DNA of 64,000 nt from Candidatus Latescibacterota bacterium (GCA_965208125.1 OZ242320.1:4768001-4832000); one strand, 5' to 3'. Shown: positions 6,520-35,011, counted from the stretch's first letter. Notes: a model not told the origin generated them from the letters alone. Program-made: numbers and translations.

Positions 6520-9500
6520 AACAGCTCTTGCCATTGTCGTATGGCTGGCGATTGGTACGGCGAAAGCAACGCCGATTATGGATCAAGTGTCGGGGCGCGT
6601 GCTGCACTTTGGTGGAACGCCTGTGGTGGATGCCCAGGTGTCCCTGTTCGATTTGACAAATCTGCGTCAGGGACCTGTAGCGCAAGCCACGACAGACGGT
6701 GCGGGTTATTTCACGCTTTCACTGGCCGGGTTGCAAAATCAGGCCGTGTTTCCCGACGGCATTGGACTGGGACAGAACTATCCCAATCCCTTTAATCCTG
6801 CCACGATCATTCCCTACCAGTTGGCAGAGGCATCGCATGTGCGGATTGAGGTGTTCAATGTGTTGGGACAACTCGTTGCGACGCTGGTGGATGCGGAGCA
6901 GGCGGCGGGGTCTCATATTGTGCGGTGGGATGCTCGGGATGCTTCGGGACGAGGTGTGGCTGCGGGGGTGTATCTCTATCGGTTTACGGTTGGTGACATA
7001 ACGCAAGTTCGCCGAATGGTTTTGCTGGACGGCAAAAAGACCCCTGCGCCAATAGGTGGGAGACAGGTTGAAGCAGTGTCCGGTGTGGTGGATGGCCTGC
7101 CCAATCCTATTTATGGTCTGGTGATTTCGGGGCAGAATATGGTCTCCCATGTGGTGTCGGATTTCCAGTTATCTGACAGCTTCATCCCGATGGATATTGT
7201 GATTGACGGGATGGAGAGCGAAAAAAGTACAAAAGTCGTAGCACAGAGCGGAATTTTAGGCGACGCAGACCTCGATGATCAAGTTAATATCGTTGATGCG
7301 TTGCTCGTAGCGGTGTACAGTGCCAATCCCACCGCGATTTCAATTTCCAGTGACGCACATGTTGATGTAAACTGCGACGGTCAAGTCGATATTGTGGATG
7401 CTTTGCTGATCGGTAAGTACAGCATCAATCAGAACGATCCTGATGTACGTCGTGACGCACCGAATATCGGCACATCTAACATTTGTTCTCCCGCGTCCCT
7501 ATCGCCTGATCCATCGACAGTGACGTTTGATACCAACGGCACATGGCATCGGTTTACGATTCAATCGAGTGAGCGGGTTATTGTGGTGGCGAATCCGAGT
7601 GGCACAACCCCGCTTGTGGAGATCAGCACCAGCGGAGGGAGCAACAATTGCCCACCCGAACAAGAGGACGATTATAGCGGCAACAACGGCGAATCCATCT
7701 ACTTGTCTGGTTGTGGTTCAGGGACAGGCACAGTGGAACTGCGTCGGGCTTCGGACAACACAGTTCTTAACACCTATACCTTTGCTATCGGTGTTCAGGC
7801 GTCCCTATCGCCTGATCCATCGACAGTGACGTTTGATACCAACGGCACATGGCATCGGTTTACGATTCAATCGAGCGAGCGGGTTATTGTGGTGGCGAAT
7901 CCGAGTGGCACGACCCCGCTTGTGGAGATCACCACCACCAGCGGAGCGCGCAACCTTTGCCCAGCCGAACAGGATGACGATTATAGCGGCAACAACGGCG
8001 AATCCATCTACTTGTCTGGTTGTGGTTCAGGGACAGGCACAGTGGAACTGCGTCGGGCTTCGGACAACACGGTTCTTAACACCTATACCTTTGCTATCGG
8101 TACTGATTCTCGTGCTTCTCAGCCGCGGGGTATCACATACGCCAACAACCGGTTCTATGTGGTTGATAGGCAGGATGATAAGGTGTATGTGTACACGAGT
8201 TCTGGCGGGCGTGTTTCGAGTGCAGACTTCAATCTGGATAGCAACAACGGTAATCCGCAGGGTATCACATACGCCAATAACAGATTCTATGTGGTTGATT
8301 GGACAGATATAAAGGTGTATGTGTACACGAGTTCTGGCGGGCGTGTTTCGAGTGCAGACTTCAATCTGGATAGCAATAACACTAATCCATCGGGTATCAC
8401 ATACGCCAACAACCGATTCTATGTGGTTGATTACGATGATGCTAAGGTGTATGTGTACAACAGTTCTGGCGGGCGTGTTTCGAGTGCAGACTTCAATCTG
8501 GCCAGTGCCAACACTACTCCGGGTGGTATCACATACGCCAACAACCGATTCTATGTGGTTGATATAGGTGATGCTAAGGTGTATGTGTACAACAGTTCTG
8601 GTCAGCGTGTTTCAAGTGCAGACTTCAATCTGGATAGCAATAACACTGATCCGAATGGTATCACTTATACCAACGACCGACTCTATGTGGCTGATAGGGA
8701 CGATGATCAGATCTATAGTTACGATGTCAGTGGAGGAGGTGGTGGTGGTGGCAGTCCAGACCTGATCGTTGAATCGCCTTCGGTCAGCGATAACACCTTG
8801 ACGACAGGACAATCCTTCACCCTACAGACAACTGTCCGTAACCAGGGCTCAGGATCGTCCGCCTCGACCACGCTATATTATTATCGCTCGTCAAACTCGA
8901 CGATTTCGCCCAGCGATACACAAGTAGGCACAGATTCGGTGAGTGGACTTTCAGCTTCTGGCACGAGTTCTGAGTCTATAAGCTTGAATGCGCCATCCAG
9001 TGCGGGTACGTATTACTACGGTGCATGTGTGGCAAGCGTCAGTGGCGAGAGCGATACAGGAAATAATTGTTCAGATGGCGTTCAGGTAACGGTCAGCAGT
9101 AGCAGTGATGATCACGGGAATAGTCGTTCTACGGCGACACAGGTATCGTCAAATAGTACGACGAATGGGCAGATTTCTCCTGTGGGCGATGTGGACTATT
9201 TTCGGGTTGACGTAAGTGGTTCTGGGACACTAACAGCTTATACGACGGGAAGTACGGATACCGAGGGCCAATTGCAGGATAGCTCAGGCAACCTCCTTGA
9301 TTCCGATGATGATACAGGCGACCTCAACTTCCGGGTTTCAGCATCGGTGAGTGCAGGGACGTACTACATCCGGGTAATCGAACATGCTAATAACGATACA
9401 GGAAGCTACACCCTGCATGTCTCTGTTACTACCTCCACTCCCTCCTCCTTCAATCTGGATAGCTCCAACGGTAATTCGAGTGGTATCACATACGCCAACA

Positions 9501-10072
9501 ACAGATTCTATGTGGTTGATTGGTCGGATGACAAGGTGTATGCGTACACCAGTAGTGGTCAGCGTGTTTCGAGTGCAGACTTCAATCTGGATAGCAACAA
9601 CAGTTATCCGTTGGGTATCACATACGCCAACAACCGCTTCTATGTGCTTGATCACGATGATAGAAAGGTGTATGCGTACACCAGTAGTGGTCAGCGTGTT
9701 TCGAGTGCTGACTTCAATCTGGATAGCTCGGGTGGTGGTATCACATACACCAACAACCGCTTCTATATGGTTGCTCCCTCAGATGCCAAGGTGTATGCGT
9801 ACACCAGTAGTGGTCAGCGTGATGCGAGTGCAGACTTCAATCTGGATAGCAACAACAGTACAGGATCGGGTATCACATACGCCAACAACCGCTTCTATGT
9901 GCTTGATTTTGAGGATTACAAGGTGTATGCGTACACCAGTAGTGGTCAGCGTGTTTCGAGTGCAGACTTCAATCTGGATAGCAATAACGCTGGTGCGAAT
10001 GGTATCACGTATGCCAACAACAGATTCTATGTGGTTGATCAGCGGTATGACAAGGTGTATGTGTACGAGTAG
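6473..10072 (+). CDS. Secreted modular protein: signal peptide, FlgD/T9SS-tail-like, dockerin-like, 2x Ig-like, 5x propeller repeat, CARDB, PPC, 5x propeller repeat
   Basis: AAGGAGG RBS before ATG 6473; LGQNYPNPFNP; GDADLDDQVNIVDA/DVNCDGQVDIVDA; GITYANNRFYVVD repeats; PDLIVESP; GDVDYFRV. Confidence 0.85.
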   Translation: MWFMKSINWSVITALKTALAIVVWLAIGTAKATPIMDQVSGRVLHFGGTPVVDAQVSLFDLTNLRQGPVAQATTDGAGYFTLSLAGLQNQAVFPDGIGLGQNYPNPFNPATIIPYQLAEASHVRIEVFNVLGQLVATLVDAEQAAGSHIVRWDARDASGRGVAAGVYLYRFTVGDITQVRRMVLLDGKKTPAPIGGRQVEAVSGVVDGLPNPIYGLVISGQNMVSHVVSDFQLSDSFIPMDIVIDGMESEKSTKVVAQSGILGDADLDDQVNIVDALLVAVYSANPTAISISSDAHVDVNCDGQVDIVDALLIGKYSINQNDPDVRRDAPNIGTSNICSPASLSPDPSTVTFDTNGTWHRFTIQSSERVIVVANPSGTTPLVEISTSGGSNNCPPEQEDDYSGNNGESIYLSGCGSGTGTVELRRASDNTVLNTYTFAIGVQASLSPDPSTVTFDTNGTWHRFTIQSSERVIVVANPSGTTPLVEITTTSGARNLCPAEQDDDYSGNNGESIYLSGCGSGTGTVELRRASDNTVLNTYTFAIGTDSRASQPRGITYANNRFYVVDRQDDKVYVYTSSGGRVSSADFNLDSNNGNPQGITYANNRFYVVDWTDIKVYVYTSSGGRVSSADFNLDSNNTNPSGITYANNRFYVVDYDDAKVYVYNSSGGRVSSADFNLASANTTPGGITYANNRFYVVDIGDAKVYVYNSSGQRVSSADFNLDSNNTDPNGITYTNDRLYVADRDDDQIYSYDVSGGGGGGGSPDLIVESPSVSDNTLTTGQSFTLQTTVRNQGSGSSASTTLYYYRSSNSTISPSDTQVGTDSVSGLSASGTSSESISLNAPSSAGTYYYGACVASVSGESDTGNNCSDGVQVTVSSSSDDHGNSRSTATQVSSNSTTNGQISPVGDVDYFRVDVSGSGTLTAYTTGSTDTEGQLQDSSGNLLDSDDDTGDLNFRVSASVSAGTYYIRVIEHANNDTGSYTLHVSVTTSTPSSFNLDSSNGNSSGITYANNRFYVVDWSDDKVYAYTSSGQRVSSADFNLDSNNSYPLGITYANNRFYVLDHDDRKVYAYTSSGQRVSSADFNLDSSGGGITYTNNRFYMVAPSDAKVYAYTSSGQRDASADFNLDSNNSTGSGITYANNRFYVLDFEDYKVYAYTSSGQRVSSADFNLDSNNAGANGITYANNRFYVVDQRYDKVYVYE

Positions 10073-10322
10073 TGGGCAATAAGGAAGTGGTGGAGGTAGT
10101 TCGACAAGCGCAACCTTGAGGGATGAAAAAACGGTCTGAAGCGGTGTACAACTGATCGATTTTCAGACCCGTTCATCAGGATGAAAGGCAATGCGCGGTG
10201 GAGGGCTTTCGCGGTTGGCAAGCCTGTCAGCCCTCCGCCGCTTTGACAACAGAGACAGGTCGTCGCCTGCTCTGTTTCTCAATCTAAAACGCCAAAACCG
10301 CAGAATCAAGTTGCTTTTTTTT
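10073..10322 (+). repeat. Structured intergenic repeat, copy 1 of 6
   Basis: Near-identical to 13996, 16319, 18530, 28911 and 35012; contains three hairpins. Confidence 0.9.
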
Positions 10323-10383
10323 ATGCGGATGGATCAGTCCCATGATCAAGGTGGCTTCCATAAACTCCATCAAGGAGGAATCC

Positions 10384-13300
10384 ATGTGGTTCATGAAGTC
10401 TATAAATTGGAGCGTGATAACCGCTCTTAAAACAGCTCTTGCCATTGTCGTATGGCTGGCGATTGGTACGGCGAAAGCAACGCCGATTATGGATCAAGTG
10501 TCGGGGCGCGTGCTGCACTTTGGTGGAACGCCTGTGGTGGATGCCCAGGTGTCCCTGTTCGATTTGACAAATCTGCGTCAGGGACCTGTAGCGCAAGCCA
10601 CGACAGACGGTGCAGGTTATTTCACGCTTTCACTGGCCGGGTTGCAAAATCAGGCCGTGTTTCCCGACGGCATTGGACTGGGGCAGAACTATCCCAATCC
10701 CTTTAATCCAGCCACGATCATACCCTACCAGTTGGCAGAGGCATCGCATGTGCGGATCGAGGTGTTCAATGTGTTGGGGCAACTCGTTGCGACGCTGGTG
10801 GATGCGGAGCAGGCGGCGGGTTCTCATATTGTGCGGTGGGATGCTCGGGATGCTTCGGGACGAGGTGTGGCTGCGGGGGTGTATCTCTATCGGTTTACAG
10901 TTGGTGACATAACGCAAGTTCGCCGAATGGTTTTGCTGGACGGCAAAAAGACCCCTGCGCCAATAGGTGGGAGACAGGTTGAAGCAGTGTCCGGTATGGT
11001 GGATGGCCTGCCCAATCCTATTTATGGTCTGGTGATTTCGGGGCAGAATATGGTCTCCCATGTGGTGTCGGATTTCCAGTTATCTGACAGCTTCATCCCG
11101 GTGGATATTGTGATCGATGGGGTGGAGAGCGAAAAAAGTACAAAAGTCGTAGCACAGAGCGGAATTTTAGGCGACGCAGACCTCGATGGTCAAGTTAATA
11201 TCGTTGATGCGTTGCTCGTAGCCGTGTACAGTGCCAATCCCACCGCGATTTCAATTTCCAGTGACGCACATGTTGATGTAAACTGCGACGGTCAAGTCGA
11301 TATTGTGGATGCCTGGCTGATCGGTAAGTACAGCATCAATCCGAACGATCCTGATGTACGTCGTGACGCCCCGAATATCGGCACATCTAACATTTGTTCT
11401 CCCGCGTCCCTATCGCCTGATCCATCGACCGTGACGTTTGACACCAACGGCACCTGGCATCGGTTTACGATTCAATCGAGTGAGCGGGTTATTGTGGTGG
11501 CGAATCCGAGTGGCACGACCCCGCTTGTGGAGATCAGCGCCAGCAGCGGAGAGAGCAACCTTTGTCCACCCGAACAGAATGATGAGATAACCCGCAACAA
11601 CGGCGAATCCATCTACTTGTCTGGTTGTGGTTCAGGGACAGGCACAGTGGAACTGCGTCGGGCTTCGGACAATACGGTTCTTAACACCTATACCTTTGCT
11701 ATCGGTGTCCAGGCGTCCCTATCGCCTGATCCATCGACCGTGACGTTTGATACCAATGGCACCTGGCATCGGTTTACGATTCAATCGAGCGAGCCGGTTA
11801 TTGTGGTGGCGAATCCGAGTGGCACAACCCCGCTTGTGGAGATTACCGACACCAGCGGAGAGGACAATTTTTGCCCACCCGAACAGGAGGACGATTATAG
11901 CGGCAACAACGGCGAATCCATCTACTTGTCTGGTTGTGGTTCAGGGACAGGCACAGTGGAACTGCGTCGGGCTTCGGACAACACGGTTCTTAACACCTAT
12001 ACCTTTGCTATCGGTACTGATTCTCATGCCCCTCAGCCGCGTGGTATCACGTATGCCAACAACCGCTTCTATGAGGTTGATCACGATGATGATAAGGTGT
12101 ATGTGTACAACAGTTCTGGTCAGCGTGATGCGAGTGCAGACTTCAATCTGGATAGCAATAACGGTAATCCGAATGGTATCACATACGCCAACAACCGCTT
12201 CTATGTGGTTGATCACAATGATGATAAGGTGTATGTGTACAACAGTTCTGGTCAGCGTGTTTCGAGTGCAGACTTCAATCTGGATAGCAATAACGGTAAT
12301 CCGGAAGGTATCACCTACGCCAACAACCGCTTCTATGTGGTTGATTGGATAGATGCCAAGGTGTATGTGTACACCAGTAGTGGACAGCGTGTTTCGAGTG
12401 CAGACTTCAATCTGGATAGCAATAACGGTACTGCAACGGGTATCACGTATGCCAACAACCGCTTCTATGTGGTTGATTACGATGATGCTAAGGTGTATGT
12501 GTACACCAGTAGTGGTCAGCGTGTTTCGAGTGCAGACTTCAATCTGGATAGCAATAACGGTAATCCGCTGGGTATCACTTATACCAACGACCGGCTCTAT
12601 GTGGCTGATAGGGACGATGATCAGATCTATAGTTACGATGTCAGTGGAGGAGGTGGTGGTGGCAGTCCAGACCTGATCGTAGAATCACCTTCGGTCAGCG
12701 ATAACACCTTGACAGCGGGACAATCCTTCACCCTACAGGCAACTGTCCGCAATCAGGGCACTGGTCAATCTGCTGCAACGACCTTGCGGTATTACCAATC
12801 TGCCAATGCGACCATATCTGCCAGCGACACACGGGTAGGCAGTGGTGCGGTAGGCAGCCTGAATGCTTCGAGCAGCAGTGTGGAATCAATCAGTTTGAAT
12901 GCGCCATCCAGTGCGGGTACGTATTACTACGGTGCGTGTGTTACGTCTGTGTCTGGTGAATCGAAGACGAATAACAACTGCTCTGTTGGTGTGCGCGTCA
13001 CGGTCAGCAGTAGCGGTGATGATCACGGGAATAGTCGTTCTACGGCGACACAGGTATCGTCAGGTAGTATGACGAATGGGCAGATTTCTCCTGTGGGCGA
13101 TGTGGACTATTTTCGGGTTGACGTAAGTGGTTCTGGGACACTAACAGCTTATACGACGGGAAGTACGGATACCGAGGGCCAATTGCAGGATAGCTCAGGC
13201 AACCTCCTTGATTCCGATGATGATACAGGCGACCTCAACTTCCGGGTTTCAGCATCGGTGAGTGCAGGGACGTACTACATCCGGGTAATCGAACATGCTA

Positions 13301-13995
13301 ATAACGATACAGGAAGCTACACCCTGCATGTCTCTGTTACTACCTCTACTCCCTCCTCCTTCAATCTGGATAGCAATAACGGTGATGCGTATGGTATCAC
13401 ATACGCCAACAACCGCTTCTATGTGACTGATTATTGGGGTGATGATAAGGTGTATGTGTACAACAGTTCTGGGCAGCGTGTTTCGAGTGCAGACTTCAAT
13501 CTGGATAGCGACAACACTCGTCCGACTGGTATCACGTATGCCAACAACAGATTCTATGTGCTTGATCTTGATGATGACAAGGTGTATGTGTACAACAGTT
13601 CTGGGCAGCGTGTTTCGAGTGCAGACTTCAATCTGGATAGCAATAACGGTGATGCGTTTGGTATCACATACGCCAACAACCGCTTCTATGTGACTGATTA
13701 TCAGGATGCAAAGGTGTATGTGTACAACAGTTCTGGCGGGCGTGTTTCGAGTGCAGACTTCAATCTGGATAGCAATAACGGTGGTCCAACGGGTATCACA
13801 TACGCCAACAACCGCCTCTATGTGGTTGATTACGGGGATGACAAGGTGTATGTGTACAACAGTTCTGGCGGGCGTGTTTCGAGTGCAGACTTCAATCTGG
13901 ATAGCGACAACAGTAATCCAACGAGTATGACATACGCCAACAACCGCTTCTATGTGGTTGATGAGGGGGCTGACAAGGTGTATGTGTACGAGTAG
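10384..13995 (+). CDS. Secreted modular protein, paralog of 6473 with the same architecture and different variable residues
   Basis: Same RBS, leader and domain order; differences cluster in repeat variable positions and CARDB. Confidence 0.85.
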   Translation: MWFMKSINWSVITALKTALAIVVWLAIGTAKATPIMDQVSGRVLHFGGTPVVDAQVSLFDLTNLRQGPVAQATTDGAGYFTLSLAGLQNQAVFPDGIGLGQNYPNPFNPATIIPYQLAEASHVRIEVFNVLGQLVATLVDAEQAAGSHIVRWDARDASGRGVAAGVYLYRFTVGDITQVRRMVLLDGKKTPAPIGGRQVEAVSGMVDGLPNPIYGLVISGQNMVSHVVSDFQLSDSFIPVDIVIDGVESEKSTKVVAQSGILGDADLDGQVNIVDALLVAVYSANPTAISISSDAHVDVNCDGQVDIVDAWLIGKYSINPNDPDVRRDAPNIGTSNICSPASLSPDPSTVTFDTNGTWHRFTIQSSERVIVVANPSGTTPLVEISASSGESNLCPPEQNDEITRNNGESIYLSGCGSGTGTVELRRASDNTVLNTYTFAIGVQASLSPDPSTVTFDTNGTWHRFTIQSSEPVIVVANPSGTTPLVEITDTSGEDNFCPPEQEDDYSGNNGESIYLSGCGSGTGTVELRRASDNTVLNTYTFAIGTDSHAPQPRGITYANNRFYEVDHDDDKVYVYNSSGQRDASADFNLDSNNGNPNGITYANNRFYVVDHNDDKVYVYNSSGQRVSSADFNLDSNNGNPEGITYANNRFYVVDWIDAKVYVYTSSGQRVSSADFNLDSNNGTATGITYANNRFYVVDYDDAKVYVYTSSGQRVSSADFNLDSNNGNPLGITYTNDRLYVADRDDDQIYSYDVSGGGGGGSPDLIVESPSVSDNTLTAGQSFTLQATVRNQGTGQSAATTLRYYQSANATISASDTRVGSGAVGSLNASSSSVESISLNAPSSAGTYYYGACVTSVSGESKTNNNCSVGVRVTVSSSGDDHGNSRSTATQVSSGSMTNGQISPVGDVDYFRVDVSGSGTLTAYTTGSTDTEGQLQDSSGNLLDSDDDTGDLNFRVSASVSAGTYYIRVIEHANNDTGSYTLHVSVTTSTPSSFNLDSNNGDAYGITYANNRFYVTDYWGDDKVYVYNSSGQRVSSADFNLDSDNTRPTGITYANNRFYVLDLDDDKVYVYNSSGQRVSSADFNLDSNNGDAFGITYANNRFYVTDYQDAKVYVYNSSGGRVSSADFNLDSNNGGPTGITYANNRLYVVDYGDDKVYVYNSSGGRVSSADFNLDSDNSNPTSMTYANNRFYVVDEGADKVYVYE

Positions 13996-14184
13996 TGGGT
14001 AATAAGGAAGTGGTGGGGGTAGTTCGGCAAGCGCAACCTTGAGGGATGAAAAAACGGGATGAATGGGATGAAAAGATGAACAGGATGAAAGGCGATGCGC
14101 GGTGGAGGGCTTTCGCGGTTGGCAAGCCTGTCAGCCCTCCGCCGCTTTGACAACAGAGACAGGTCGTCACCTGCTCTGTTTCGC
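13996..14184 (+). repeat. Structured intergenic repeat, copy 2 (first hairpin deleted)
   Basis: Alignment by eye to copy 1. Confidence 0.85.
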
Positions 14185-16587: not shown

Positions 16588-16816
16588 AGGCGGTGGGATG
16601 TTGTTTTCTCTATCAGGGGTAGGGGATGAAACCAGCACCCACCGCGCCAATGTCTTCGGAATCAAGGAAAGGAGGTATGCGAAGCCTATCTCTCTGTATT
16701 TGGAACGATAGACTTCGGCGAGAATGTCAAGACTACTGACTTTGGCCTTGCCGGGGGGATCGGTGCCGAGATACCGATCTCCGATCTGCACATTTTTCAA
16801 TAAAGGAGAATTTCAA

Positions 16817-18529
16817 ATGTCATCCTTCTACCGTCTTTTAGCTGCGATAGCACTTTGCTCTATCCTCACCACACCAAATGCTTCCTGTGCTGAAGATAGG
16901 CCGGTCCTTTTCCTGGATGGTCGATCTCATGTTGAATTGCCGAGAAATTTTTTTTACCGAACAACACAGGCGACTACACCAGACTTCAATGGCGATGGTG
17001 TGGTCAATTTTGCCGACTTTTTGGCATTTGCAGGTCAGTTTGGGTCTCGTCAGGGCGATGGGCGGTATGAGGCGAAGTATGACTTAGACGGCGATGGCGC
17101 AATAGGCTTTGGTGATTTTCTCATCTTTGGCAAAAGCTATGGTCAACAAGTGCCACCCTCTGGTGGCGGTGGGACGCCTGCCATCTACAAGGAGACCCTC
17201 GATCTGTATGCTTTCAACGGTGATCCGAGGGGTATCACGTATGCCAACAACAGATTCTATGTGGTTGATTGGAGAGATAACAAGGTGTATGTGTACACCA
17301 GTAGTGGTCAGCGAGTAGAAAACGCTGACTTCGACCTGGATAGAGACAACGGTTCTCCGACAGGTATCACGTATGCCAACAACAGATTCTATGTGGTTGA
17401 TTGGTGGGATGACAAGGTGTATGTGTACAATAGTAGTGGTCAGCGAGTAGAAAACGCTGACTTCGACCTATATAGCGACAACAGTGATCCGAGTGGTATC
17501 ACGTATGCCAATAACAGATTCTATGTGGTTGATTGGCGGGATGACAAGGTGTATGTGTACAATAGTAGTGGTCAGCGAGTAGAAAGCGCTGACTTCGACC
17601 TATATAGCGACAACAGTTCTCCGGAGCGTATCACGTATGCCAACAACCGCTTCTATGTGGTTGATCGGGTGGATGACAAGGTGTATGTGTACAATAGTAG
17701 TGGTCAGCGAGTAGAAAACGCTGACTTCGACCTAGATTTGGATAGCGACAATAGTCGTCCGGAGGGTATCACGTATGCCAACAACAGATTCTATGTGGTT
17801 GATATTGATTATGACAAGGTGTATGTGTACACCAGTAGTGGTCAGCGAGTAGAAAGCGCTGACTTCGAGCTGTATGCTTTCAACAGTTCTCCTTTGGGTA
17901 TCACGTATGCCAACAACAGATTCTATGTGGTTGACTACAGGTGGATTGGGGGGGCTGATAAGGTGTATGTGTACAATAGTAGTGGTCAGCGAGTAAGAAG
18001 CGCTGACTTCGACCTGCATAGCGACAACAGTGAGCCGAGGGGTATCACGTATGCCAACAACAGATTCTATGTGGTTGATGATGACTTTTTTGGTGTTCAA
18101 AAGGTGTATGTGTACACCAGTAGTGGTCAGCGAGTAGAAAACGCTGACTTCGACCTGGATGCTTTCAACATTGATCCGAGGGGTATCACGTATGCCAACA
18201 ACCGCTTCTATGTGGTTGACTACAGGTGGATTGGGGGGGCTGATAAGGTGTATGTGTACAATAGTAGTGGTCAGCGAGTAGCAAGTGCTGACTTCGACCT
18301 GCATAGCGACAACATTGATCCGGAGGGTATCACGTATGCCAACAACAGATTCTATGTGGTTGATGAGGAGGATGACAAGGTGTATGTGTACAATAGTAGT
18401 GGTCAGCGAGTAGCAAGTGCTGACTTCGACCTGCATAGCGACAACAGTACTCCGAGGGGTATCACGTATGCCAACAACAGATTCTATGTGGTTGATATTG
18501 GGAATGACAAGATATATGTGTACGAGTAG
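16817..18529 (+). CDS. Chimeric secreted protein: leader of the LamG gene, EF-hand/dockerin pair, 10x propeller repeat
   Basis: First ~53 codons match 29407; then PDFNGDGVVNFADF as in 33401; ten GITYANNRFY units. Confidence 0.85.
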   Translation: MSSFYRLLAAIALCSILTTPNASCAEDRPVLFLDGRSHVELPRNFFYRTTQATTPDFNGDGVVNFADFLAFAGQFGSRQGDGRYEAKYDLDGDGAIGFGDFLIFGKSYGQQVPPSGGGGTPAIYKETLDLYAFNGDPRGITYANNRFYVVDWRDNKVYVYTSSGQRVENADFDLDRDNGSPTGITYANNRFYVVDWWDDKVYVYNSSGQRVENADFDLYSDNSDPSGITYANNRFYVVDWRDDKVYVYNSSGQRVESADFDLYSDNSSPERITYANNRFYVVDRVDDKVYVYNSSGQRVENADFDLDLDSDNSRPEGITYANNRFYVVDIDYDKVYVYTSSGQRVESADFELYAFNSSPLGITYANNRFYVVDYRWIGGADKVYVYNSSGQRVRSADFDLHSDNSEPRGITYANNRFYVVDDDFFGVQKVYVYTSSGQRVENADFDLDAFNIDPRGITYANNRFYVVDYRWIGGADKVYVYNSSGQRVASADFDLHSDNIDPEGITYANNRFYVVDEEDDKVYVYNSSGQRVASADFDLHSDNSTPRGITYANNRFYVVDIGNDKIYVYE

Positions 18530-18796
18530 GAGCCAATAAGGAAGTGGTGGGGGTAGTTCGGCAAGCGCGATCTTGAGGGATGTAAAAACGGTCTGAAGCG
18601 GTGTACAACGGGTCGATTTTCAGACCCGTTCATCAGGATGAAAGGATGGCCAGGATGAAAGGCGATGCGCGGTGGCGGGCTTTCGCGGTTGGCAAGCCTG
18701 TCAGCCCTCCGCCGCTTTGACAACAGAGACAGGTCGTCACCTGCTCTGTTTCTCAATCTAAAACGCCAAAACCGCAGAATCAAGTTGCTTTTTTTC
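18530..18796 (+). repeat. Structured intergenic repeat, copy 4
   Basis: Alignment to copy 1. Confidence 0.9.
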
Positions 18797-18857
18797 ATGC
18801 GGACGGATCAGTCCCATGATCAAGGTGGCTTCCATAAACTCCATCAAGGAGGAATCC

Positions 18858-23692: not shown

Positions 23693-23868
23693 AAAGATAG
23701 GGGACGCCGTATGTTCTTCCATAGCTGGAGTTTGCGCCGCGCTGTTAACTTCTTTGAGTCGATATAAGCAAGGAGACTAATAAAATGAATTGCTCTGAAT
23801 TCACTGGCTTGATTTTGCAAATTGTTGAAAGTATCTGCAGATTCTTAAGCTCTATCAAGGAGGAATCC

Positions 23869-26800
23869 ATGTGGTTCATGAAGTCTATAAATTGGAGCGT
23901 GATAACCGCTCTTAAAACAGCTCTTAAAACAGCTCTTGCCATTGTCGTATGGCTGGCGATTGGTACGGCGAAAGCAACGCCGATTATGGATCAAGTGTCG
24001 GGTCGCGTGCTGCACTTTGGCGGAACGCCTGTGGTGGATGCTCAGGTGTCCCTGTTCGATTTGAACGATCTGCGTCAGGGACCTGTAGCGCAAGCCACAA
24101 CAGACGGTGCGGGTTATTTCACGCTTTCACTGGCCGGGTTGCAAAATCAGGCCGTGTTTCCCGACGGCATTGGACTGGGGCAGAACTATCCCAATCCCTT
24201 TAATCCAGCTACGATCATTCCCTACCAGTTAGCAGAGGCATCGCATGTGCGGATCGAGGTGTTCAATGTGTTGGGACAACTCGTTGCGACGTTGGTGGAT
24301 GCGGAGCAGGCAGCGGGTTCTCATATTGTGCGGTGGGATGCTCGAGATGCTTCGGGACGAGGTGTGGCTGCGGGGGTGTATCTGTATCGGTTTACAGTTG
24401 GTGACATAACGCAAGTTCGTCGAATGGTTTTGCTGGACGGCAAAAAGACCCCTGCGCCAATAGGTGGGAGACAGGTTGAAGCAGTGTCCGGTGTGGTGGA
24501 TGGCCTGCCCAATCCTATTTATGGTCTGGTGATTTCGGGGCAGAATATGGTCTCCCATGTGGTGTCGGATTTCCAGTTATCTGACAGCTTCATCCCGATG
24601 GATATTGTGATCGATGGGGTGGATATTTTGTTTGATGGGATGGAGAGTGAAAAAAGTACAAAAGTCGTAGCACAGAGCGGAATTTTAGGTGACGCAGACC
24701 TCGATGGTCAAGTTACTATCGTTGATGCGTTGCTCGTAGCCATGTACAGTGCCAATCCCACCGCGATTTCAATTTCCAGTGACGCACATGTTGATGTAAA
24801 CTGCGACGGTCAAGTCGATATTGTGGATGCCTGGCTGATAGGTAAGTACAGCATCAATCCGAACGATTCTGATGTACGTCGTGACGCCCCGAATATCGGC
24901 ACATCTAACATTTGTTCTCCCGCGTCCCTATCGCCTGATCCATCGACAGTGACGTTTGATACCAATGGCACATGGCATCGGTTTACGATTCAATCGAGTG
25001 AGCGGGTTATTGTGGTGGCGAATCCGAGTGGCACAACCCCGCTTGTGGAGATCAGCGCCAGCAGCGGAGAGAGCAACCTTTGTCCACCCGAACAGAATGA
25101 TGAGATAACCCGCAACAACGGCGAATCCATCTACTTGTCTGGTTGTGGTTCAGGGACAGGCACAGTGGAACTGCGTCGGGCTTCGGACAATACGCTTCTC
25201 AACACCTATACCTTTTCTATCGGTGTCCAGGCGTCCCTATCGCCTGATCCATCGACAGTGATGTTTGATACCAACGGCACCTGGCATCGGTTCACGATTC
25301 AATCGAGTGAGCGGGTTATTGTGGTGGCGAATCCGAGTGGCACGACCCCGCTTGTGGAGATTACCACCACCAGCGGAGCGCGCAACCTTTGCCCAGCCGA
25401 ACAGGATGACGATTATAGCGGCAACAACGGCGAGTTCATCTACTTGTCTGGTTGTGGTTCAGGGACAGGCACAGTGGAACTGCGTCGGGCTTCGGACAAC
25501 ACAGTTCTTAATACCTATACCTTTTCTATCGGTACTGATTCTCGTGCCCCTCTTCCGACTGGTATCACATACGTCAACAACCGCTTCTATGAGGTTGATC
25601 ACGATGATGATAAGGTGTATGTGTACAACAGTTCTGGTCAGCGAGTAGCAAGTGCTGACTTCAATCTGGATAGCAATAACGGTAATCCGCAGGGTATCAC
25701 GTATGCCAACAACCGCTTCTATGTGGTTGATCACGATGATGATAAGGTGTATGTGTACAACAGTTCTGGTCAGCGAGTAGCAAGTGCTGACTTCGACCTG
25801 GATAGCAACAACGGGGATCCGATTGGTATCACATACGCCAACAACCGATTCTATGTGGTTGATTGGATAGATGATAAGGTGTATGTGTACAACAGTTCTG
25901 GGCAGCGTGTTTCAAGTGCAGACTTCAATCTGGATAGCAATAACGGTAATCCGGAGGGTATCACATACGCCAACAACAGGTTCTATGTGGTTGATTGGAT
26001 AGATGATAAGGTGTATGTGTACAACAGTTCTGGTCAGCGTGATGCGAGTGCAGACTTCAATCTGGATAGCAACAACGATATTCCGACTGGTATCACTTAT
26101 ACCAACGGCCGACTCTATGTGGCTGATAGAGACGATGATCAGATCTATAGTTACGATGTCAGTGGAGGAGGAGGTGGTGGTGGCAGTCCAGACCTGATCG
26201 TAGAATCACCCTCAGTGAGCAATAGCACCCTGACGACGGGGCAATCATTCACCCTACAAGCAACTGTCCGCAATCAGGGCACTGGTCAATCTGCTGCAAC
26301 GACCTTGCGGTATTACCAATCTGTCAATGCGACCATATCTGTAAGCGACACACGGGTAGGCAGTGCTGCGGTAGGCAGCCTGAATGCTTCGAGCAGCAGT
26401 GTGGAATCAATCAGCTTGAATGCGCCATCGAGTTCGGGTACGTATTACTACGGTGCGTGTGTTTCGTCTGTGTCTGGCGAATCGAAGACGAATAACAACT
26501 GCTCTGTTGGTGTGCGTGTCACGGTCAGTAGTGGTGGTGGAACGACCGTTACCATTCCTGATGTGAATCTTCGCGCGGTGATTACGGATAGTCTGGGCAA
26601 GGCGCGTGGTGCGCCGATCACGCGGGCTGAGATGGCGAGTTTGACGCGCCTTTCGGCACCGAACTCGAACATCAGCGATTTGACCGGACTTGAGGTTGCA
26701 ACTGGTCTGACAAGGCTGGAGCTTGGTAGAGAGTTTGTGTCTGGTAGCTGGGTCAACAGCAACGAAATATCCGACCTCTCGCCCCTATCTGGTCTAACCA

Positions 26801-27594
26801 ACTTGACATACCTCGATCTTACCTCCAACAGCATCTCGGATATATCTGCTCTGTCCAATCTGACTAATCTGACAGGGCTGTTTCTTTTCAGCAACAGTAT
26901 CTCGGATGTGTCAGCCCTGTCTAACCTGACCAACCTGACATACCTCAGTCTTAGCCGGAACAGCATCTCGGATGTGTCAGCCCTGTCTAACCTGACAAAC
27001 CTGACAGTGCTGTATCTTTACAACAACAGCATCTCGGATGTGTCAGCCCTGTCTAACCTGACAAACCTGACAGTGCTGTATCTTGACAACAACAGCATCT
27101 CGGATGTGTCAGCCCTGTCTAACCTGACTAATCTGACAGAGCTGGGGCTTCGGAACAACAGCATCTCGGATGTGTCAGCCCTGTCTAACCTGACAAACCT
27201 GACAGTGCTGTATCTTGACAACAACAGCATCTCGGATGTGTCAGCCCTGTCTAACCTGACAAACCTGACAGTGCTGTATCTTTACAACAACAGCATCTCG
27301 GATGTGTCAGCCCTGTCTAACCTGACAAACCTGACAAGGCTGTATCTTGACAACAACAACATCTCGAACATTGCACCTCTGGCCGCAAATACGGGTTTGG
27401 GCAGTGGCGATGAGGTTGATGTGAGAAACAACCCGCTGAGTGCTACATCACTCAACACGCACATTCCAACCCTTCAGGGCAGAGGAGTTAATGTGAGATT
27501 TGGATCAGGGAAGCCTGCGGTTGTTGATGAGCAAAAGCCGCGTATGGAGGGTATGCTACCGGAGGAAAGAGAATACAATCCTTTCAGGCGGTGA
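23869..27594 (+). CDS. Secreted protein: FlgD/T9SS-tail-like, dockerin, 2x Ig-like, 5x propeller repeat, CARDB, internalin-type LRRs
   Basis: N-terminal ~880 aa as in 6473/10384; then IPDVNLRAVI cap and SISDVSALSNLTNLT repeats. Confidence 0.87.
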   Translation: MWFMKSINWSVITALKTALKTALAIVVWLAIGTAKATPIMDQVSGRVLHFGGTPVVDAQVSLFDLNDLRQGPVAQATTDGAGYFTLSLAGLQNQAVFPDGIGLGQNYPNPFNPATIIPYQLAEASHVRIEVFNVLGQLVATLVDAEQAAGSHIVRWDARDASGRGVAAGVYLYRFTVGDITQVRRMVLLDGKKTPAPIGGRQVEAVSGVVDGLPNPIYGLVISGQNMVSHVVSDFQLSDSFIPMDIVIDGVDILFDGMESEKSTKVVAQSGILGDADLDGQVTIVDALLVAMYSANPTAISISSDAHVDVNCDGQVDIVDAWLIGKYSINPNDSDVRRDAPNIGTSNICSPASLSPDPSTVTFDTNGTWHRFTIQSSERVIVVANPSGTTPLVEISASSGESNLCPPEQNDEITRNNGESIYLSGCGSGTGTVELRRASDNTLLNTYTFSIGVQASLSPDPSTVMFDTNGTWHRFTIQSSERVIVVANPSGTTPLVEITTTSGARNLCPAEQDDDYSGNNGEFIYLSGCGSGTGTVELRRASDNTVLNTYTFSIGTDSRAPLPTGITYVNNRFYEVDHDDDKVYVYNSSGQRVASADFNLDSNNGNPQGITYANNRFYVVDHDDDKVYVYNSSGQRVASADFDLDSNNGDPIGITYANNRFYVVDWIDDKVYVYNSSGQRVSSADFNLDSNNGNPEGITYANNRFYVVDWIDDKVYVYNSSGQRDASADFNLDSNNDIPTGITYTNGRLYVADRDDDQIYSYDVSGGGGGGGSPDLIVESPSVSNSTLTTGQSFTLQATVRNQGTGQSAATTLRYYQSVNATISVSDTRVGSAAVGSLNASSSSVESISLNAPSSSGTYYYGACVSSVSGESKTNNNCSVGVRVTVSSGGGTTVTIPDVNLRAVITDSLGKARGAPITRAEMASLTRLSAPNSNISDLTGLEVATGLTRLELGREFVSGSWVNSNEISDLSPLSGLTNLTYLDLTSNSISDISALSNLTNLTGLFLFSNSISDVSALSNLTNLTYLSLSRNSISDVSALSNLTNLTVLYLYNNSISDVSALSNLTNLTVLYLDNNSISDVSALSNLTNLTELGLRNNSISDVSALSNLTNLTVLYLDNNSISDVSALSNLTNLTVLYLYNNSISDVSALSNLTNLTRLYLDNNNISNIAPLAANTGLGSGDEVDVRNNPLSATSLNTHIPTLQGRGVNVRFGSGKPAVVDEQKPRMEGMLPEEREYNPFRR

Positions 27595-29177: not shown

Positions 29178-29406
29178 AGGCGGTGGGATGTTGTTTTCTC
29201 TATCAGGGGTAGGGGATGAAACCAGCACCCACCGCGCCAATGTCTTCGGAATCAAGGAAAGGAGGTATGCGAAGCCCATCTCTCTGTGTTTGGAACGATA
29301 GACTTCGGCGAGAATGTCAAGACTACTGACTTTGGCCTTGCCGGGGGGATCGGTGCCGAGATACCGATCTCCGATCTGCACATTTTTCAATAAAGGAGAA
29401 TTTCAA

Positions 29407-31161
29407 ATGTCATCCTTCTACCGTCTTTTAGCTGCGATAGCACTTTGCTCTATCCTCACCACACCAAATGCTTACTGTGCTGAAGAGATGCCGGTCCTTT
29501 TCCTGGATGGTCGATCTCATGTTGAATTGCCGAGAAATCTTTTTGACCGAACAACACAGGCGACGATTGAGGTTTGGGTAAAATGGAATCGTTTCAACCA
29601 GTGGTCTCGGGTCTTTGATTTTGGTCATGAAGGTAATGCAGTCGTTCTACAGAATGAGAAATCCTCCAACACGCTCAATTATAGAATTTGGGATAGATCT
29701 GGCAAGCGGCATGGCACCCAGGCCAAAAAGGCTGTCAATACGGGTGCCTGGTATCATATGGCTGTTGTAAGCGGATTTGATGGAATGAAATTTTACATCA
29801 ATGGTCAGCTTGTAGATCGAGACGATTTCAGGGGGTCTCTGAGTGAAGCGGCTGGGGGAACCAATTTTATTGGAAAATCAAACTGGCCCAAGGACAAACT
29901 GTTCGAGGGCTACATTTCAGAACTGCGAATCTGGTCAAAAGTGCGGTCACAATCAGAAATCCGTTCTGCAATGGAGACAGCCCTTGCAGGAACCGAAGAT
30001 GGCCTGCTCGCTTATTACAGATTTACGGAAGCGGCTGATGGCCTCATTCCAAATGTTGTAGATCCAGGTTTCCCAGCGCGGATGGTGGGGACCGCAAGAC
30101 TCGAAAACGTTCGAGCCATCGCCCCTTTGCTGGTACCTGATGCACTTGAAAAAGCGGCTGTCGCCAGTTATGAAAAAGCGAAAGCCGCCCTTGATGCCAA
30201 ACAGTTTGCCACAGCGATTGATGAATTTGAGCGGCTCAACGGCCTTTACCCACAATATATGGACTCTGATAACTTACTTGCCCAGGCGCGTCAACTTGAG
30301 GCAGAACGACAAGCCGAAAATTTCTACCAGACAGGCATGCAACATATTCAACAAGGCAAATTTCGGGAGGCATATTTCGAATTTGAGTCTGCATTAAGCC
30401 AGGTCCCTGCATTTAAGGATGCACAAATGCACATGAAAAACGCGCTTGAAAAGGCCACCTATCGCGTTGCGATTTACCCTTTCAAGACAGCGACTATGAG
30501 TGCCAATATCATGCTTTTGCAACAGGCATTGACAACCAATTTGATGCAAGACAAGTCGGTATTTGTCGAATATGTAGATCAGCAGGTTCTCAATCAGCTT
30601 TCTACACGTCAGGGGACTCATTTTGGCGTGATTGACCCCATGCAAACTTTATCTGCTGCAAAAAATGAAAATATTCGCGTTGTGGTGTTTGGTGATTTGT
30701 TGGCTGCCACAGCTATCCCATCGAATCCTTATATGCGACCTGAAACAGCCTATACAGCACTGACTGTCGGCAGGAAGGTTGTCGGAAAAGGGCCACAGCA
30801 AACGTACTATATCATATCACAAAACGTGCAGGTTCATTGTGAAGCGGTTTACAGAATTCTGGATACACAGACAGGCGCTGTTCTCCACTTTGGCACCGTG
30901 CGTGAAAATTTGAGCGATCAGGTAGAATACGCAGAGTATCATGGAAATAAAAATGCACTTGTGAGTAATGTATATAGGGATGAGAATGCAAAGACGACAA
31001 GATGGATAGTTATACCGCTCCGTGAGTCAAGATTCAATGCTCGAAGAGATCTCAGAAATCCTGGAGAAATGATGAATGAAGCCCTGAGGGGATTGGGAGA
31101 GAAAATCGCTCGAGAAATCAATGGTTTCCTGTCATCACACCTGGCCACGAGTTCACAATAA
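29407..31161 (+). CDS. Secreted LamG/ConA-like plus TPR plus CsgG-like C-terminal domain protein
   Basis: TIEVWVKW, WYHMAVV, FYINGQLV, FEGYISELRIW (LamG); TPR-like helices; RVAIYPF...YRILDTQTGAV. Confidence 0.75.
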   Translation: MSSFYRLLAAIALCSILTTPNAYCAEEMPVLFLDGRSHVELPRNLFDRTTQATIEVWVKWNRFNQWSRVFDFGHEGNAVVLQNEKSSNTLNYRIWDRSGKRHGTQAKKAVNTGAWYHMAVVSGFDGMKFYINGQLVDRDDFRGSLSEAAGGTNFIGKSNWPKDKLFEGYISELRIWSKVRSQSEIRSAMETALAGTEDGLLAYYRFTEAADGLIPNVVDPGFPARMVGTARLENVRAIAPLLVPDALEKAAVASYEKAKAALDAKQFATAIDEFERLNGLYPQYMDSDNLLAQARQLEAERQAENFYQTGMQHIQQGKFREAYFEFESALSQVPAFKDAQMHMKNALEKATYRVAIYPFKTATMSANIMLLQQALTTNLMQDKSVFVEYVDQQVLNQLSTRQGTHFGVIDPMQTLSAAKNENIRVVVFGDLLAATAIPSNPYMRPETAYTALTVGRKVVGKGPQQTYYIISQNVQVHCEAVYRILDTQTGAVLHFGTVRENLSDQVEYAEYHGNKNALVSNVYRDENAKTTRWIVIPLRESRFNARRDLRNPGEMMNEALRGLGEKIAREINGFLSSHLATSSQ

Positions 31162-32789: not shown

Positions 32790-32833
32790 TCTGGCAGAAT
32801 CAATAGACAATTCTAAAGAGAGGGTTTACTGGT

Positions 32834-33313: not shown

Positions 33314-33400
33314 AAAGCCTGTATTCCTGCACGGCTATATTGACGCGACCATGGCTTCTGTCTTCTAATAGGACTTAACCAAAAAAGAAGGAGAAAGAAA

Positions 33401-35011
33401 ATGTGTAAGTACTTGACACTTGTCGCACTCATTGGACTCTTTTTCGCAGGTCCAGTCTCTGCTGATTCTCATACAGATCCAGACTTTAACGACGATGGTG
33501 TGGTCAATTTTGCCGACTTTTTGGCATTTGTAGGTCAGTTTGGGGCACGTCAGGGCGATGGGCGGTATGAGGCGAAGTATGACTTAGACAGCGATGGTGC
33601 GATAGGTTTTAGTGATTTTCTGATCTTTGCCAACAGTTATGGTCAACAAGTGCCGCCATCTGGTGGTGAGACGCCTGCCATCTACAAGGAGACCCTCGAC
33701 CTGTATGCTTTCAACGGTGATCCGGGGGGTATCACGTATGCCAATAACAGATTCTATGTGGTTGATTGGGCGGATGACAAGGTGTATGTGTACAATAGTA
33801 GTGGTCAGCGAGTAGCAAGCGCTGACTTCGACCTGGATAGCGACAACAGGGGTCCGACAGGTATCACGTATGCCAATAACAGATTCTATGTGGTTGATTG
33901 GGCGGATGCCAAGGTGTATGTGTACAATAGTAGTGGTCAGCGAGTAGAAAACGCTGACTTCGACTTGGATAGCGACAATAGTTATGCGACAGGTATCACG
34001 TATGCCAACAACAGATTCTATGTGGTTGATAATGATGATAACAAGGTGTATGTGTACACGAGTTCTGGTCAGCGCGTAGCAAGTGCTGACTTCGACCTGC
34101 GCAGATACAACAGTTCTCCGAGAGGTATCACGTATGCCAACAACAGATTCTATGTGGTTGATGATGAGTATTTGGATGAGAAGGTGTATGTGTACACCAG
34201 TAGTGGTCAGCGAGTAGCAAGTGCTGACTTCGACCTGAATAGCGGCAACAGTTATGCGACAGGTATCACGTATGCCAACAACAGATTCTATGTGGTTGAT
34301 AATGATGATAACAAGGTGTATGTGTACACGAGTTCTGGTCAGCGCGTAGCAAGTGCTGACTTCGACCTGCATAGCGGCAACAGTGCTCCGGGGGGTATCA
34401 CGTATGCCAACAACAAATTCTATGTGCTTGATGATGAGTTTTTTGGTATTAGTAATATTAGTAAGGTGTATGTGTACACCAGTAGTGGTCAGCGAGTAGC
34501 AAGTGCTGACTTCGACCTATATAGCGACAATAGTTCTCCGACAGATATCACGTATGCCAACAACAGATTCTATGTGGTTGATGGGTTTGATGACAAGGTG
34601 TATGTGTACACCAGTAGTGGTCAGCGCGTAGCAAGCGCTGACTTCGACCTGCATGCTTTCAACGGTGATCCGAGTGGTATCACGTATGCCAACAACAGGT
34701 TCTATGTGGTTGATGTGAGGGATGACAAGGTGTATGTGTACACCAGTAGTGGTCAGCGCGTAGCAAGTGCTGACTTCGACCTATATAGCGGTAATGGTGA
34801 TCCGAGCGGTATCACGTATGCCAACAACAGATTCTATGTGCTTGAGTGGTGGGATGAGAAGGTGTATGTGTACAGTAGTAGTGGTCAGCGAGTAGCAAGT
34901 GCTGACTTCGACCTGCATAGCGACAACAGTAATCCGGAGGGTATCACGTATGCCAACAACAGATTCTATGTGGTTGATTACTATGATGACAAGGTGTATG
35001 TGTACGAGTAG
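33401..35011 (+). CDS. Secreted EF-hand/dockerin plus 10x propeller repeat protein
   Basis: MCKYL leader; DFNDDGVVNFADF/DLDSDGAIGFSDF; ten GITYANN units. Confidence 0.87.
   Translation: MCKYLTLVALIGLFFAGPVSADSHTDPDFNDDGVVNFADFLAFVGQFGARQGDGRYEAKYDLDSDGAIGFSDFLIFANSYGQQVPPSGGETPAIYKETLDLYAFNGDPGGITYANNRFYVVDWADDKVYVYNSSGQRVASADFDLDSDNRGPTGITYANNRFYVVDWADAKVYVYNSSGQRVENADFDLDSDNSYATGITYANNRFYVVDNDDNKVYVYTSSGQRVASADFDLRRYNSSPRGITYANNRFYVVDDEYLDEKVYVYTSSGQRVASADFDLNSGNSYATGITYANNRFYVVDNDDNKVYVYTSSGQRVASADFDLHSGNSAPGGITYANNKFYVLDDEFFGISNISKVYVYTSSGQRVASADFDLYSDNSSPTDITYANNRFYVVDGFDDKVYVYTSSGQRVASADFDLHAFNGDPSGITYANNRFYVVDVRDDKVYVYTSSGQRVASADFDLYSGNGDPSGITYANNRFYVLEWWDEKVYVYSSSGQRVASADFDLHSDNSNPEGITYANNRFYVVDYYDDKVYVYE

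Follow-up and report, generated by a model that had tools for sequence, protein, structure and literature searches.

Five genes encoding tandem propeller blades

The 64,000-nucleotide stretch of DNA analysed here (GCA_965208125.1 OZ242320.1:4768001-4832000, hereafter the window) belongs to a Candidatus Latescibacterota bacterium and contains five plus-strand genes, which we call O1 to O5 and which encode tandem arrays of a propeller-blade repeat (Table 1). A motif scan of the open reading frames (ORFs) identified 45 repeat units over 6.4-35 kb of the window, ten in each of O1, O2, O3 and O5 and five in O4, the first starting at 8129 and the final one ending at 35008. The repeat had been noticed in a first-pass annotation of the same DNA, and its existence, its location and the number of 45 units all held up, far beyond what chance would give. 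Thirty-eight of the units are full and seven are terminal or degenerate; among these seven, four are C-terminal and end after ...KVYVYE, and three are degenerate closing units identical to each other. Outside this locus, 24 further units were detected at three other loci of the genome, making 69 motif hits in all.

The products of O1-O5 are predicted to be secreted, on the basis of signal peptides read by eye, and are probably displayed on the cell surface. Pfam places their blades in the NHL / DUF5128 'six-bladed propeller' group. The NHL family (PF01436, cut-off 20) scored 54.2 bits in O2, 29.4 in O4 and 72.0 in O5, these values being sums of weak repeats and in no case a single stretch. In O1 and O3, DUF5128 was matched at 41.3 and 57.1 bits (cut-off 22.9), and NHL was not listed at E <= 0.01. 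The other Pfam modules are a Por_Secre_tail/FlgD_Ig-like sandwich near the N-terminus, dockerin and CARDB, together with a leucine-rich repeat (LRR) array in O4. No NTPase (NACHT/NB-ARC) was present among the Pfam matches of the repeat proteins.

The unit is 44 amino acids long (132 bp), and not 42 amino acids (126 bp) as first annotated. Tandem Repeats Finder gave a period of 132 with 4.3-9.6 copies per array and 79-89% matches, and 30 of the 38 full units contain exactly 44 codons, the remainder ranging from 41 to 50. We aligned the 38 full units codon by codon and measured variation in each column. The highest values were obtained for positions 14 and 15 (3.14 and 3.40 bits, with 13 and 14 residue types) and for positions 42 and 44 (2.95 and 3.00 bits, with 10 residue types each). 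Positions 17, 39 and 41 were intermediate, at ∼2.1 bits, and every other column was below 1.7 bits. In what follows, the hypervariable codons are positions 14, 15, 42 and 44, and the framework consists of 37 other codons; codons 14-15 form patch 1 and codons 42-44 patch 2, and the units fall into two subfamilies (O1/O2/O4 and O3/O5).

Both patches also vary in length, with 1-6 extra codons between positions 14 and 15 in six units and positions 42-44 absent from one unit (O1u7). The 38 units carry 27 different loop strings, and 29 different non-empty strings were counted at positions 42-44 in 37 units. On either side of patch 1, the codons GTG GTT GAT ... GAT GAy AAG GTG are invariant, third bases included. 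Position 14 is W, Y, F or H in 63% of cases, compared with 17% in the framework, and position 15 is acidic (D/E) in 32%.

The first-pass annotation had delimited the variable regions as the 2-5 codons after VD and the 3 codons before GIT. All eleven loop strings that it quoted are present, and the changes do take in all codon positions and indels, as it had stated, and involve all four bases. However, its limits were too generous: after VD only positions 14 and 15 are hypervariable, position 16 being Asp in 33 of 38 units and position 17 only moderately variable, and before GIT it is positions 42 and 44, position 43 being Pro in 31 of 37 units. Its description of the patches as rich in aromatic and acidic residues applies to position 14 for the former and position 15 for the latter, but aromatic residues amount to only 3-8% in patch 2. 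Similarly, conservation 'down to most synonymous sites' is right in that the third base is invariant in 19 of the 37 framework codons (22 and 25 of 37 within the two subfamilies), but too strong in view of the overall synonymous divergence of the framework given below.

Divergence of hypervariable codons and proposed exchange between units

Over all units, nucleotide identity was 0.38 at hypervariable codons versus 0.87 in the framework; within subfamilies, the corresponding values were 0.40-0.41 and 0.91-0.92, and the mean identity of whole 132-nt units was 0.81. The proportion of non-synonymous differences (pN) at hypervariable codons reached 0.62-0.65, whereas that of synonymous differences (pS) in the framework was 0.29 overall and 0.16-0.17 within subfamilies, and the former exceeded the latter in 654 of 703 unit pairs. 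With Jukes-Cantor correction, the ratio of hypervariable dN to framework dS came to 4.1 over all units and, by subfamily, to 6.9 and 7.9, so that the non-synonymous divergence of the variable codons lies above the background of the surrounding framework; the first-pass annotation had named the lack of such an excess as evidence against its proposal. Per-site diversity at the first and second positions of hypervariable codons averaged 0.67, with a minimum of 0.60, compared with a mean of 0.19 and a maximum of 0.60 at framework third positions (Mann-Whitney p = 3e-6). The four hypervariable codons of each unit are close to saturated. Sites that change no faster than neutrally would not outstrip synonymous ones in this manner.

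The genome also carries a sister gene of ∼990 codons with 15 more-differentiated blades, orthologues of which occur in at least five other species of the genus. We compared six orthologues, from five close species and a sixth one. Among the five close species, pN was 0.105 at positions 14/15 and 0.069 at positions 42/44 versus a framework pS of 0.232 (ratios of 0.45 and 0.30); with the sixth species added, the ratios of pN to framework pS were 0.72 and 0.69. The 15 blades within one sister protein differ from each other at positions 14/15 and 42/44 with a pN of 0.63, and blade-specific strings such as FW, VD, RG+SVSDRGDE and FL are identical in the five species. This conservation between orthologues indicates that positions 14/15 and 42/44 are blade-specific determinants kept by selection, and not mutating loops. 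The hypervariable diversity is germline and lies between blades and paralogues.

The same columns stand out in the wider family. Among 216 distinct 44-amino acid units, taken from 95 of 120 listed homologues, the most variable positions were 14, 15, 42, 44 and 41, at 3.4-3.8 bits. Homologues amounted to 473 proteins at E <= 1e-3 among 8000 scored candidates. Few of them are named, and these are proteins of metagenome-assembled genomes (MAGs) labelled Gammaproteobacteria, Gemmatimonadetes, Candidatus Poribacteria and Rhodospirillaceae. When species genomes were scanned, further relatives appeared, at 32-52% identity, in MAGs whose titles name Opitutales, the archaeon Nitrosopumilus sp., Holophagales and Dehalococcoidia. 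The presence of relatives across phyla and domains suggests horizontal spread or a common habitat.

An alternative would be that the blades were very recently amplified from one founder, hence their common synonymous sites, and that the four codons belong to unconstrained surface loops that drift. Highly repetitive propellers are widespread in bacteria and are read as recent amplifications in the main text of PMC9218822, where the words 'NHL', 'hypervariable', 'five-bladed' and 'sponge' do not occur. Moreover, the gene set of the window is specific to this genome, and the loops tolerate indels. However, drift cannot exceed the synonymous rate, and pN at hypervariable codons is 2-4 times the framework pS even before correction. 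Drift also does not account for units that are near-identical in the framework yet saturated at their hypervariable codons, for the strong bias of position 14 towards W/Y/H/F, or for the purifying selection acting on the same positions in the sister-gene orthologues. We consider this explanation quite improbable.

The sharp boundaries between invariant and hypervariable codons could also recall a diversity-generating retroelement, or some similar mutator, acting on these codons. The genome, a single contig of 5.75 Mb that is 96% complete, gave no RVT_1 match in a search for reverse transcriptase, whereas control genomes were positive. In addition, the changes are of every kind noted above, adjacent AAC AAC codons are invariant and the hypervariable positions are stable in sister-gene orthologues, which makes a dedicated mutator scarcely credible. 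In contig fragments from four sequencing runs of two studies, differences cluster at codons 14-17 and 37-46, in material where alleles, paralogues and other organisms are not separable: the fragments are short, many are 85-95% alike, many fit two places, many joints are repeat collapses, and the best run covered 0.45 of the sampled words. No RNA run was listed alongside them. Two scans of Joint Genome Institute (JGI) metagenome contigs, one with a protein pattern and one with a degenerate DNA pattern, found no close alleles.

Several observations concern the way in which the framework is kept similar. Unit pairs with only one or two differences in the 111 framework nucleotides differ at 6-9 of the 12 hypervariable nucleotides, and the mean hypervariable difference is 0.55-0.67 in each bin of framework distance; hypervariable divergence is thus independent of framework divergence. 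The two patches also assort independently of each other. None of the 15 unit pairs with an identical patch 1 also shares patch 2, none of the 10 pairs with an identical patch 2 also shares patch 1, and the Mantel correlation between the patches is r = 0.03 (O1u7, which has no patch 2, being omitted from Mantel tests). When O1, O2 and O4 were compared position by position, pS was lowest over the N-terminal 566 codons (0.08-0.11), intermediate in the propeller framework (0.20-0.26) and highest in the CARDB region of O1 versus O2/O4 (0.55-0.65), so that divergence between these paralogues is mosaic.

A 42-nt framework pattern with the two hypervariable codons masked was then matched against this genome and 13 other genomes of the genus. 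Val19 is encoded by GTG in 31 of 31 matches of this genome and in 3 of 30 matches of the others, which mostly use GTC or GTT, usually with one variant per genome; as the pattern itself is biased to GTG, we graded this contrast as conservative. Array-specific variants occur as well, for instance Ala21 in all four full units of the second O1 propeller. Taken together, the decoupling of hypervariable codons from the framework, the assortment of patches, the mosaic divergence, the Val19 codon and the array-specific variants point to homogenisation of the framework rather than to very fast change of the hypervariable codons. Gene conversion between units would be the mechanism involved.

Predicted fold and a candidate recognition surface

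The C-terminal five-unit module of O2 (218 amino acids) was modelled by AlphaFold from an alignment of the nine modules of the window, with a predicted local distance difference test score (pLDDT) of 92.8 and a predicted template-modelling score (pTM) of 0.91. The model of O5, obtained with a 29-row alignment, reached a pLDDT of 86.3 and a pTM of 0.60. The 218-amino acid module aligned best with bacterial glutaminyl cyclases, namely 3mbr (Z 24.9, root-mean-square deviation (rmsd) 2.2 A, 206 of 218 residues aligned) and 3nok (Z 23.6), followed by YjiK (3qqz, Z 22.6). Over its five-bladed matches, Z ranged from 22.6 to 24.9 and rmsd from 2.2 to 2.6 A, with 202-211 of 218 residues aligned, whereas six-bladed NHL domains gave a Z of 17-19.5 and an rmsd of 3.4-3.8 A. 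Foldseek returned a TM-score of 0.79 for 3nol and of 0.75-0.79 over the five-bladed set. Thus, the six-bladed architecture of the NHL family does not apply here, the five-unit module superposing fully on five-bladed structures.

Structural alignment with the O5 model placed 3mbr over residues 307-536 (Z 25.4) and other chains over residues 94-312. O5 is accordingly modelled as two tandem five-bladed propellers, at residues of about 94-310 and 307-536, and the split of the alignments into two halves suggests that the ten-unit proteins each contain two such propellers. We also considered a single ten-bladed propeller for O3 and O5; this was rejected, as the designed nine- and ten-bladed structures that came out among the top Foldseek matches reached a TM-score of only 0.22-0.30 and the alignment gives two five-blade halves.

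The similarity to glutaminyl cyclases raises the question of an enzyme, with a glutaminyl-cyclase-like or lactonase-like propeller whose variable loops would line an active site. The best structural matches are indeed of this type. However, sequence identity is only 12-15%, and Glu_cyclase_2 (PF05096) scored 17.1 bits in O3 and 20.5 bits in O5, below its cut-off of 22.3. Five near-identical blades with differing loops, in nine different modules of one locus, also fit poorly with a single conserved active site, and we regard a catalytic role as very unlikely.

In the O5 and O2-module models, DSSP assigned strand a to unit positions 43-5, b to 8-13, c to 18-22 and d, which is irregular, to about 28-35. 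The arrays open with a d-strand piece and close after strand c, as in the usual 'velcro' closure. In a four-strand meander, the b-c and d-a connections lie at the same end of the sheet. According to this assignment, positions 14-17 form the b-c loop and positions 39-44 the link by which strand d leads into strand a of the following blade. The 'top' surface of NHL propellers is the one made by their b-c and d-a loops, and in Brat it is described as the ligand-binding face (PMC4015489). Both patches are therefore predicted on one face of the propeller, the top one, in line with what the first-pass annotation had suggested. The bottom face is conserved, with an a-b turn (N6 N7) and a c-d loop (S24 S25 G26 Q27).

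The account that we favour, and hold to be reasonably probable, is that the framework is under concerted evolution while selection keeps four top-face contact codons per blade diverse. The five genes would encode secreted, probably surface-displayed multidomain proteins whose heads are five-bladed propellers of 44-amino acid NHL-type blades, with one propeller per five-unit array or two in tandem in the ten-unit proteins. Unequal crossing-over and gene conversion over short tracts may exchange sequence among the 132-bp units, both inside each of the five linked genes and from one gene to another, and this exchange would hold the 37 framework codons at about 90% nucleotide identity. Four codons per blade, one pair in the b-c loop and the other in the d-a connection, would escape homogenisation, and positions 17, 39 and 41 would escape it less. 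Selection would keep the four codons different because they correspond to blade-specific contacts of a ligand-binding surface. On an unchanging scaffold, each propeller would then present a different set of contact residues, and the locus would constitute a small germline repertoire of binding heads. The first-pass annotation had likened the variable patches to the complementarity-determining regions (CDRs) of a diversified binding surface; the predicted one-face location of the sites and the divergence ratios support such a surface, but the analogy with CDRs is loose, as the diversity is germline and no reverse transcriptase mutator was found.

Binding is thus the function that we would attribute to the propeller heads. 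As to the ligand, our leading guess is a glycan or protein of the host or of particles, as suggested by the aromatic and acidic nature of the putative contacts and by published work on NHL proteins of sponge symbionts. By the same analogy, recognition of host surfaces is a reasonable guess as to function, but only a guess. Exposed loops could instead vary for evasion, in order to escape phage receptor-binding proteins, host pattern receptors or predators. The predicted surface exposure of secreted proteins, the variation of exposed loops, the linked paralogous cassettes and the signs of inter-copy exchange would all fit this idea. However, the variation lies between blades of one molecule and between co-resident paralogues, the positions are conserved across species in the sister gene, and a composition rich in aromatic residues is what contact sites typically have. 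No allelic or phase variation was seen, in material where alleles and paralogues are not separable. Nor were an invertase or silent cassettes noticed in the window, though no search was aimed at these. Evasion appears to us unlikely.

Four points weigh against concerted evolution with selected contact codons. First, the hypervariable columns were picked after the data had been seen, a circularity that the comparison with synonymous sites limits and does not remove. Second, the signs of exchange are indirect, and one of them, the lack of correlation between the distances of two framework segments within subfamilies (Mantel r = 0.02 and -0.05), comes from a comparison of low power with few differing sites. 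Third, pN at the hypervariable codons of O1/O2/O4 (0.42-0.70) is not above the pS of the CARDB region, and the ratio of hypervariable dN to the latter is about 1. By this yardstick, the hypervariable sites could be old and roughly neutral, and the excess over the local framework would reflect homogenisation of the framework and not a fast change of the hypervariable codons. Fourth, the predicted clustering on one face follows from strand topology and the definition of the top surface, and not from distances.

The closest described phenomenon, by analogy, may be found in the WD40 repeats of HNWD genes (het-e, het-d and het-r) of Podospora anserina. As far as these sources describe them, HNWD WD40 repeats undergo concerted evolution within and between loci, and two codon pairs per repeat are positively selected and lie on the top face of the propeller (PMC2873952, PMC12222747). 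The likeness extends to blades of ∼42-44 amino acids that exchange, here putative, keeps similar within and between loci; to units highly similar at the nucleotide level within and between loci (framework 0.87 over five genes); and to two pairs of hypervariable codons per repeat, under diversifying selection (proposed here), placed by our models on the top face and recombining independently, as the assortment of the patches suggests here. In contrast to HNWD, the blades are of NHL type, the propellers are predicted to be five-bladed, and the proteins are bacterial and presumably secreted, with dockerin, CARDB, PPC or LRR modules and no NACHT/NB-ARC NTPase.

Other systems share part of these features. 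NHL proteins such as Brat, TRIM71/LIN-41, TRIM2/3 and the PknD sensor domain have the same blade motif, blade structure and b-c/d-a top face, but six blades instead of five, and their blades are not near-identical. Glutaminyl cyclases (3mbr, 3nok, 3nol, 2iwa) and the YjiK/SdiA-regulated domain (3qqz) resemble the modules over the whole domain fold, but at the low sequence identity mentioned above, and their blades are differentiated, the cyclases having one active site. In transcription activator-like effectors (TALEs), through their repeat-variable diresidues (RVDs), and in lamprey variable lymphocyte receptors (VLRs), on the concave face of the LRRs, a constant repeat scaffold with a few hypervariable residues per repeat sets specificity; TALEs read DNA with one base per repeat, and VLRs are assembled somatically. 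The folds of TALEs and VLRs differ from that of the propellers, and the likeness is one of design; the LRR arrays of the window have the same pattern. Finally, expression of the sponge-symbiont NHL-domain 'eukaryotic-like protein' ELP9 changed the uptake of bacteria by sponge cells (PMC13747020). Like ELP9, the proteins studied here are bacterial, contain NHL-type domains and are predicted to be secreted, a likeness by description and not by sequence comparison; the hypervariable-codon design does not figure in the available description of ELP9 (PMC13747020).

Our literature search found no description of hypervariable codons in NHL-type or five-bladed bacterial propellers. What appears to be new here is the five-bladed scaffold made of NHL-type blades, the secreted multidomain bacterial setting without NTPase and the co-occurrence of LRR arrays of like design. 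A broader proposal would see in the locus a bacterial germline recognition repertoire, in which a shared anchoring stalk carries interchangeable NHL-type or LRR heads, exchange of cassettes inside the genome holds the repeats of these heads constant as scaffolds, and the four contact codons are continually reshuffled; we put this forward tentatively, as a possibility on the doubtful side. Such a repertoire may be an extracellular prokaryotic counterpart of the logic of fungal HNWD genes or lamprey VLRs, with which symbionts of many phyla, an archaeon included, would recognise surfaces of hosts or particles.

The analysis points to individual residues as the likely specificity determinants of a large family of presumably secreted proteins with NHL-type repeats, found in many uncultured bacterial phyla and in one archaeal MAG or more. 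Should the four positions determine ligand specificity, the family is testable by residue swap, and 'high internal conservation plus hypervariable sites' would extend from intracellular fungal NOD-like receptor (NLR) sensors to an extracellular bacterial five-bladed NHL scaffold. In that case the propellers would also give binder engineering a natural scaffold that folds well and whose positions for randomisation are defined. The similar design of the LRR arrays suggests a general way of diversifying surface recognition in this lineage.

Modules and other repeats of the locus

Table 1. Propeller genes, their arrays and related features (positions in the window unless a genome contig is given)
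Feature	Position	Strand	Description
O1	6377..10072	+	1231 aa as listed; N-terminus common to O2/O4, starting MWFMKSINW; predicted signal peptide, CarboxypepD_reg-like, FlgD_Ig/Por_Secre_tail-like, dockerin, 2 x 103-aa domain, propeller 1, CARDB, PPC-like, propeller 2
O1 propeller 1	8129..8734	+	Four full 132-bp units and a degenerate closing unit (GITYTNDRLYVADRDDDQIYSYDVSG)
Patch 1 example	8168..8173	+	Codons 14-15 of the first unit, AGG CAG = RQ; predicted b-c loop
Patch 2 example	8252..8260	+	Codons 42-44 of the first unit, AAT CCG CAG = NPQ; predicted d-a connection to the next blade
O1 propeller 2	9443..10069	+	N-terminal d-strand piece (SFNLDS..), four units (one of 41 codons) and a terminal a-b-c unit, which is the end of the protein
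O2	10342..13995	+	1217 aa; architecture as O1
O2 propeller 1	12043..12648	+	Four full units and one degenerate unit
O2 propeller 2	13339..13992	+	218-aa module folded alone; modelled as a five-bladed propeller
O3	16724..18529	+	601 aa; predicted signal peptide, dockerin-like segment, ten units at 17192-18526; units 6-8 with loop insertions of 3-4 codons
O4	23785..27594	+	1269 aa; N-terminal 590 aa as in O1/O2; propeller 25561-26166; CARDB; LRR array 26826-27366 in the place of the second propeller
O5	33401..35011	+	536 aa; predicted signal peptide, dockerin-like segment, ten units at 33689-35008
360-aa N-terminal module	6470-7550, 10384-11463, 18858-19922, 23869-24981		Predicted signal peptide, CarboxypepD_reg-like, FlgD_Ig/Por_Secre_tail-like, dockerin
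Other propeller repeat types nearby	20277-20971, 36199-36812, 49808-50546, 51605-52312		
Sister gene	G000:C1:4017489-4020464		∼990 aa; 15 more-differentiated blades

The first 360 amino acids of O2 are 97-100% identical in O1, in O4 and in the ORF at 18816-23312, which encodes a YWTD / S8 peptidase / VWA protein. On this module are found two propellers (in two genes), a propeller and an LRR array (in one) or YWTD, S8 peptidase and VWA domains (in one). In full length, the module was present in none of 20 other genomes of the genus, in which only a ∼95-amino acid subdomain was matched, at <=53% identity. The first ∼85 residues of O3 recur near-verbatim in the ORF at 29314-31161, a Laminin_G_3/TPR protein (16724-16980 versus 29314-29570), and the N-terminus of O5 is shared with the LRR proteins at 14283 and 35456 (33401-33500 versus 14283-14380 and 35456-35550). 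Since near-verbatim leaders precede unrelated heads, leader, stalk and head modules seem to be shuffled in the locus. A six-frame translation print also revealed conservation over ∼90 nt after the stop codon in O1, O2, O3 and O5 (10070-10160, 13993-14080, 18527-18610 and 35009-35100), so that the duplicated or converted unit would reach beyond the coding region.

LRR units of 22 amino acids (66 bp, 85-88% matches) are located at 14283-15842 and 26826-27366, and single ones within 35456-40396 and 47855-52774. Over 23 units, variation amounted to 2.6-2.7 bits at positions 9, 11 and 13 and to 1.6 bits at position 14, which correspond to the x positions of LxxLxLxxN. The first and second codon positions of these x positions had a diversity of 0.54-0.73, the rest of the unit being nearly invariant. 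The LRR arrays have the same design as the propeller blades, with a constant scaffold and variable x positions.

A 309-bp tandem duplication (91-95% matches) at 7493-8101, 11404-12015 and 24922-25533 corresponds to the two copies of the 103-amino acid domain, for which no Pfam match was obtained. Differences between its copies and between paralogues are concentrated in a Cys-flanked loop, ..LVEI[ST].[ST]..G...N.CP.EQ.D....NN... Region 6770-7010 and its paralogues match the C-terminal sorting domain of the type IX secretion system (T9SS), with Por_Secre_tail at 32-34 bits and FlgD_ig at 34-40 bits; this sorting-like domain sits near the N-terminus of proteins of 1200-1500 amino acids, and not at the C-terminus. 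Finally, the other propeller repeat types nearby comprise YWTD / Ldl_recept_b repeats, whose units of 126-129 bp show 75-79% matches, as well as an Asp-rich repeat of 144 bp (ADLDGDGDADV...) in the ORF at 47855-52774.

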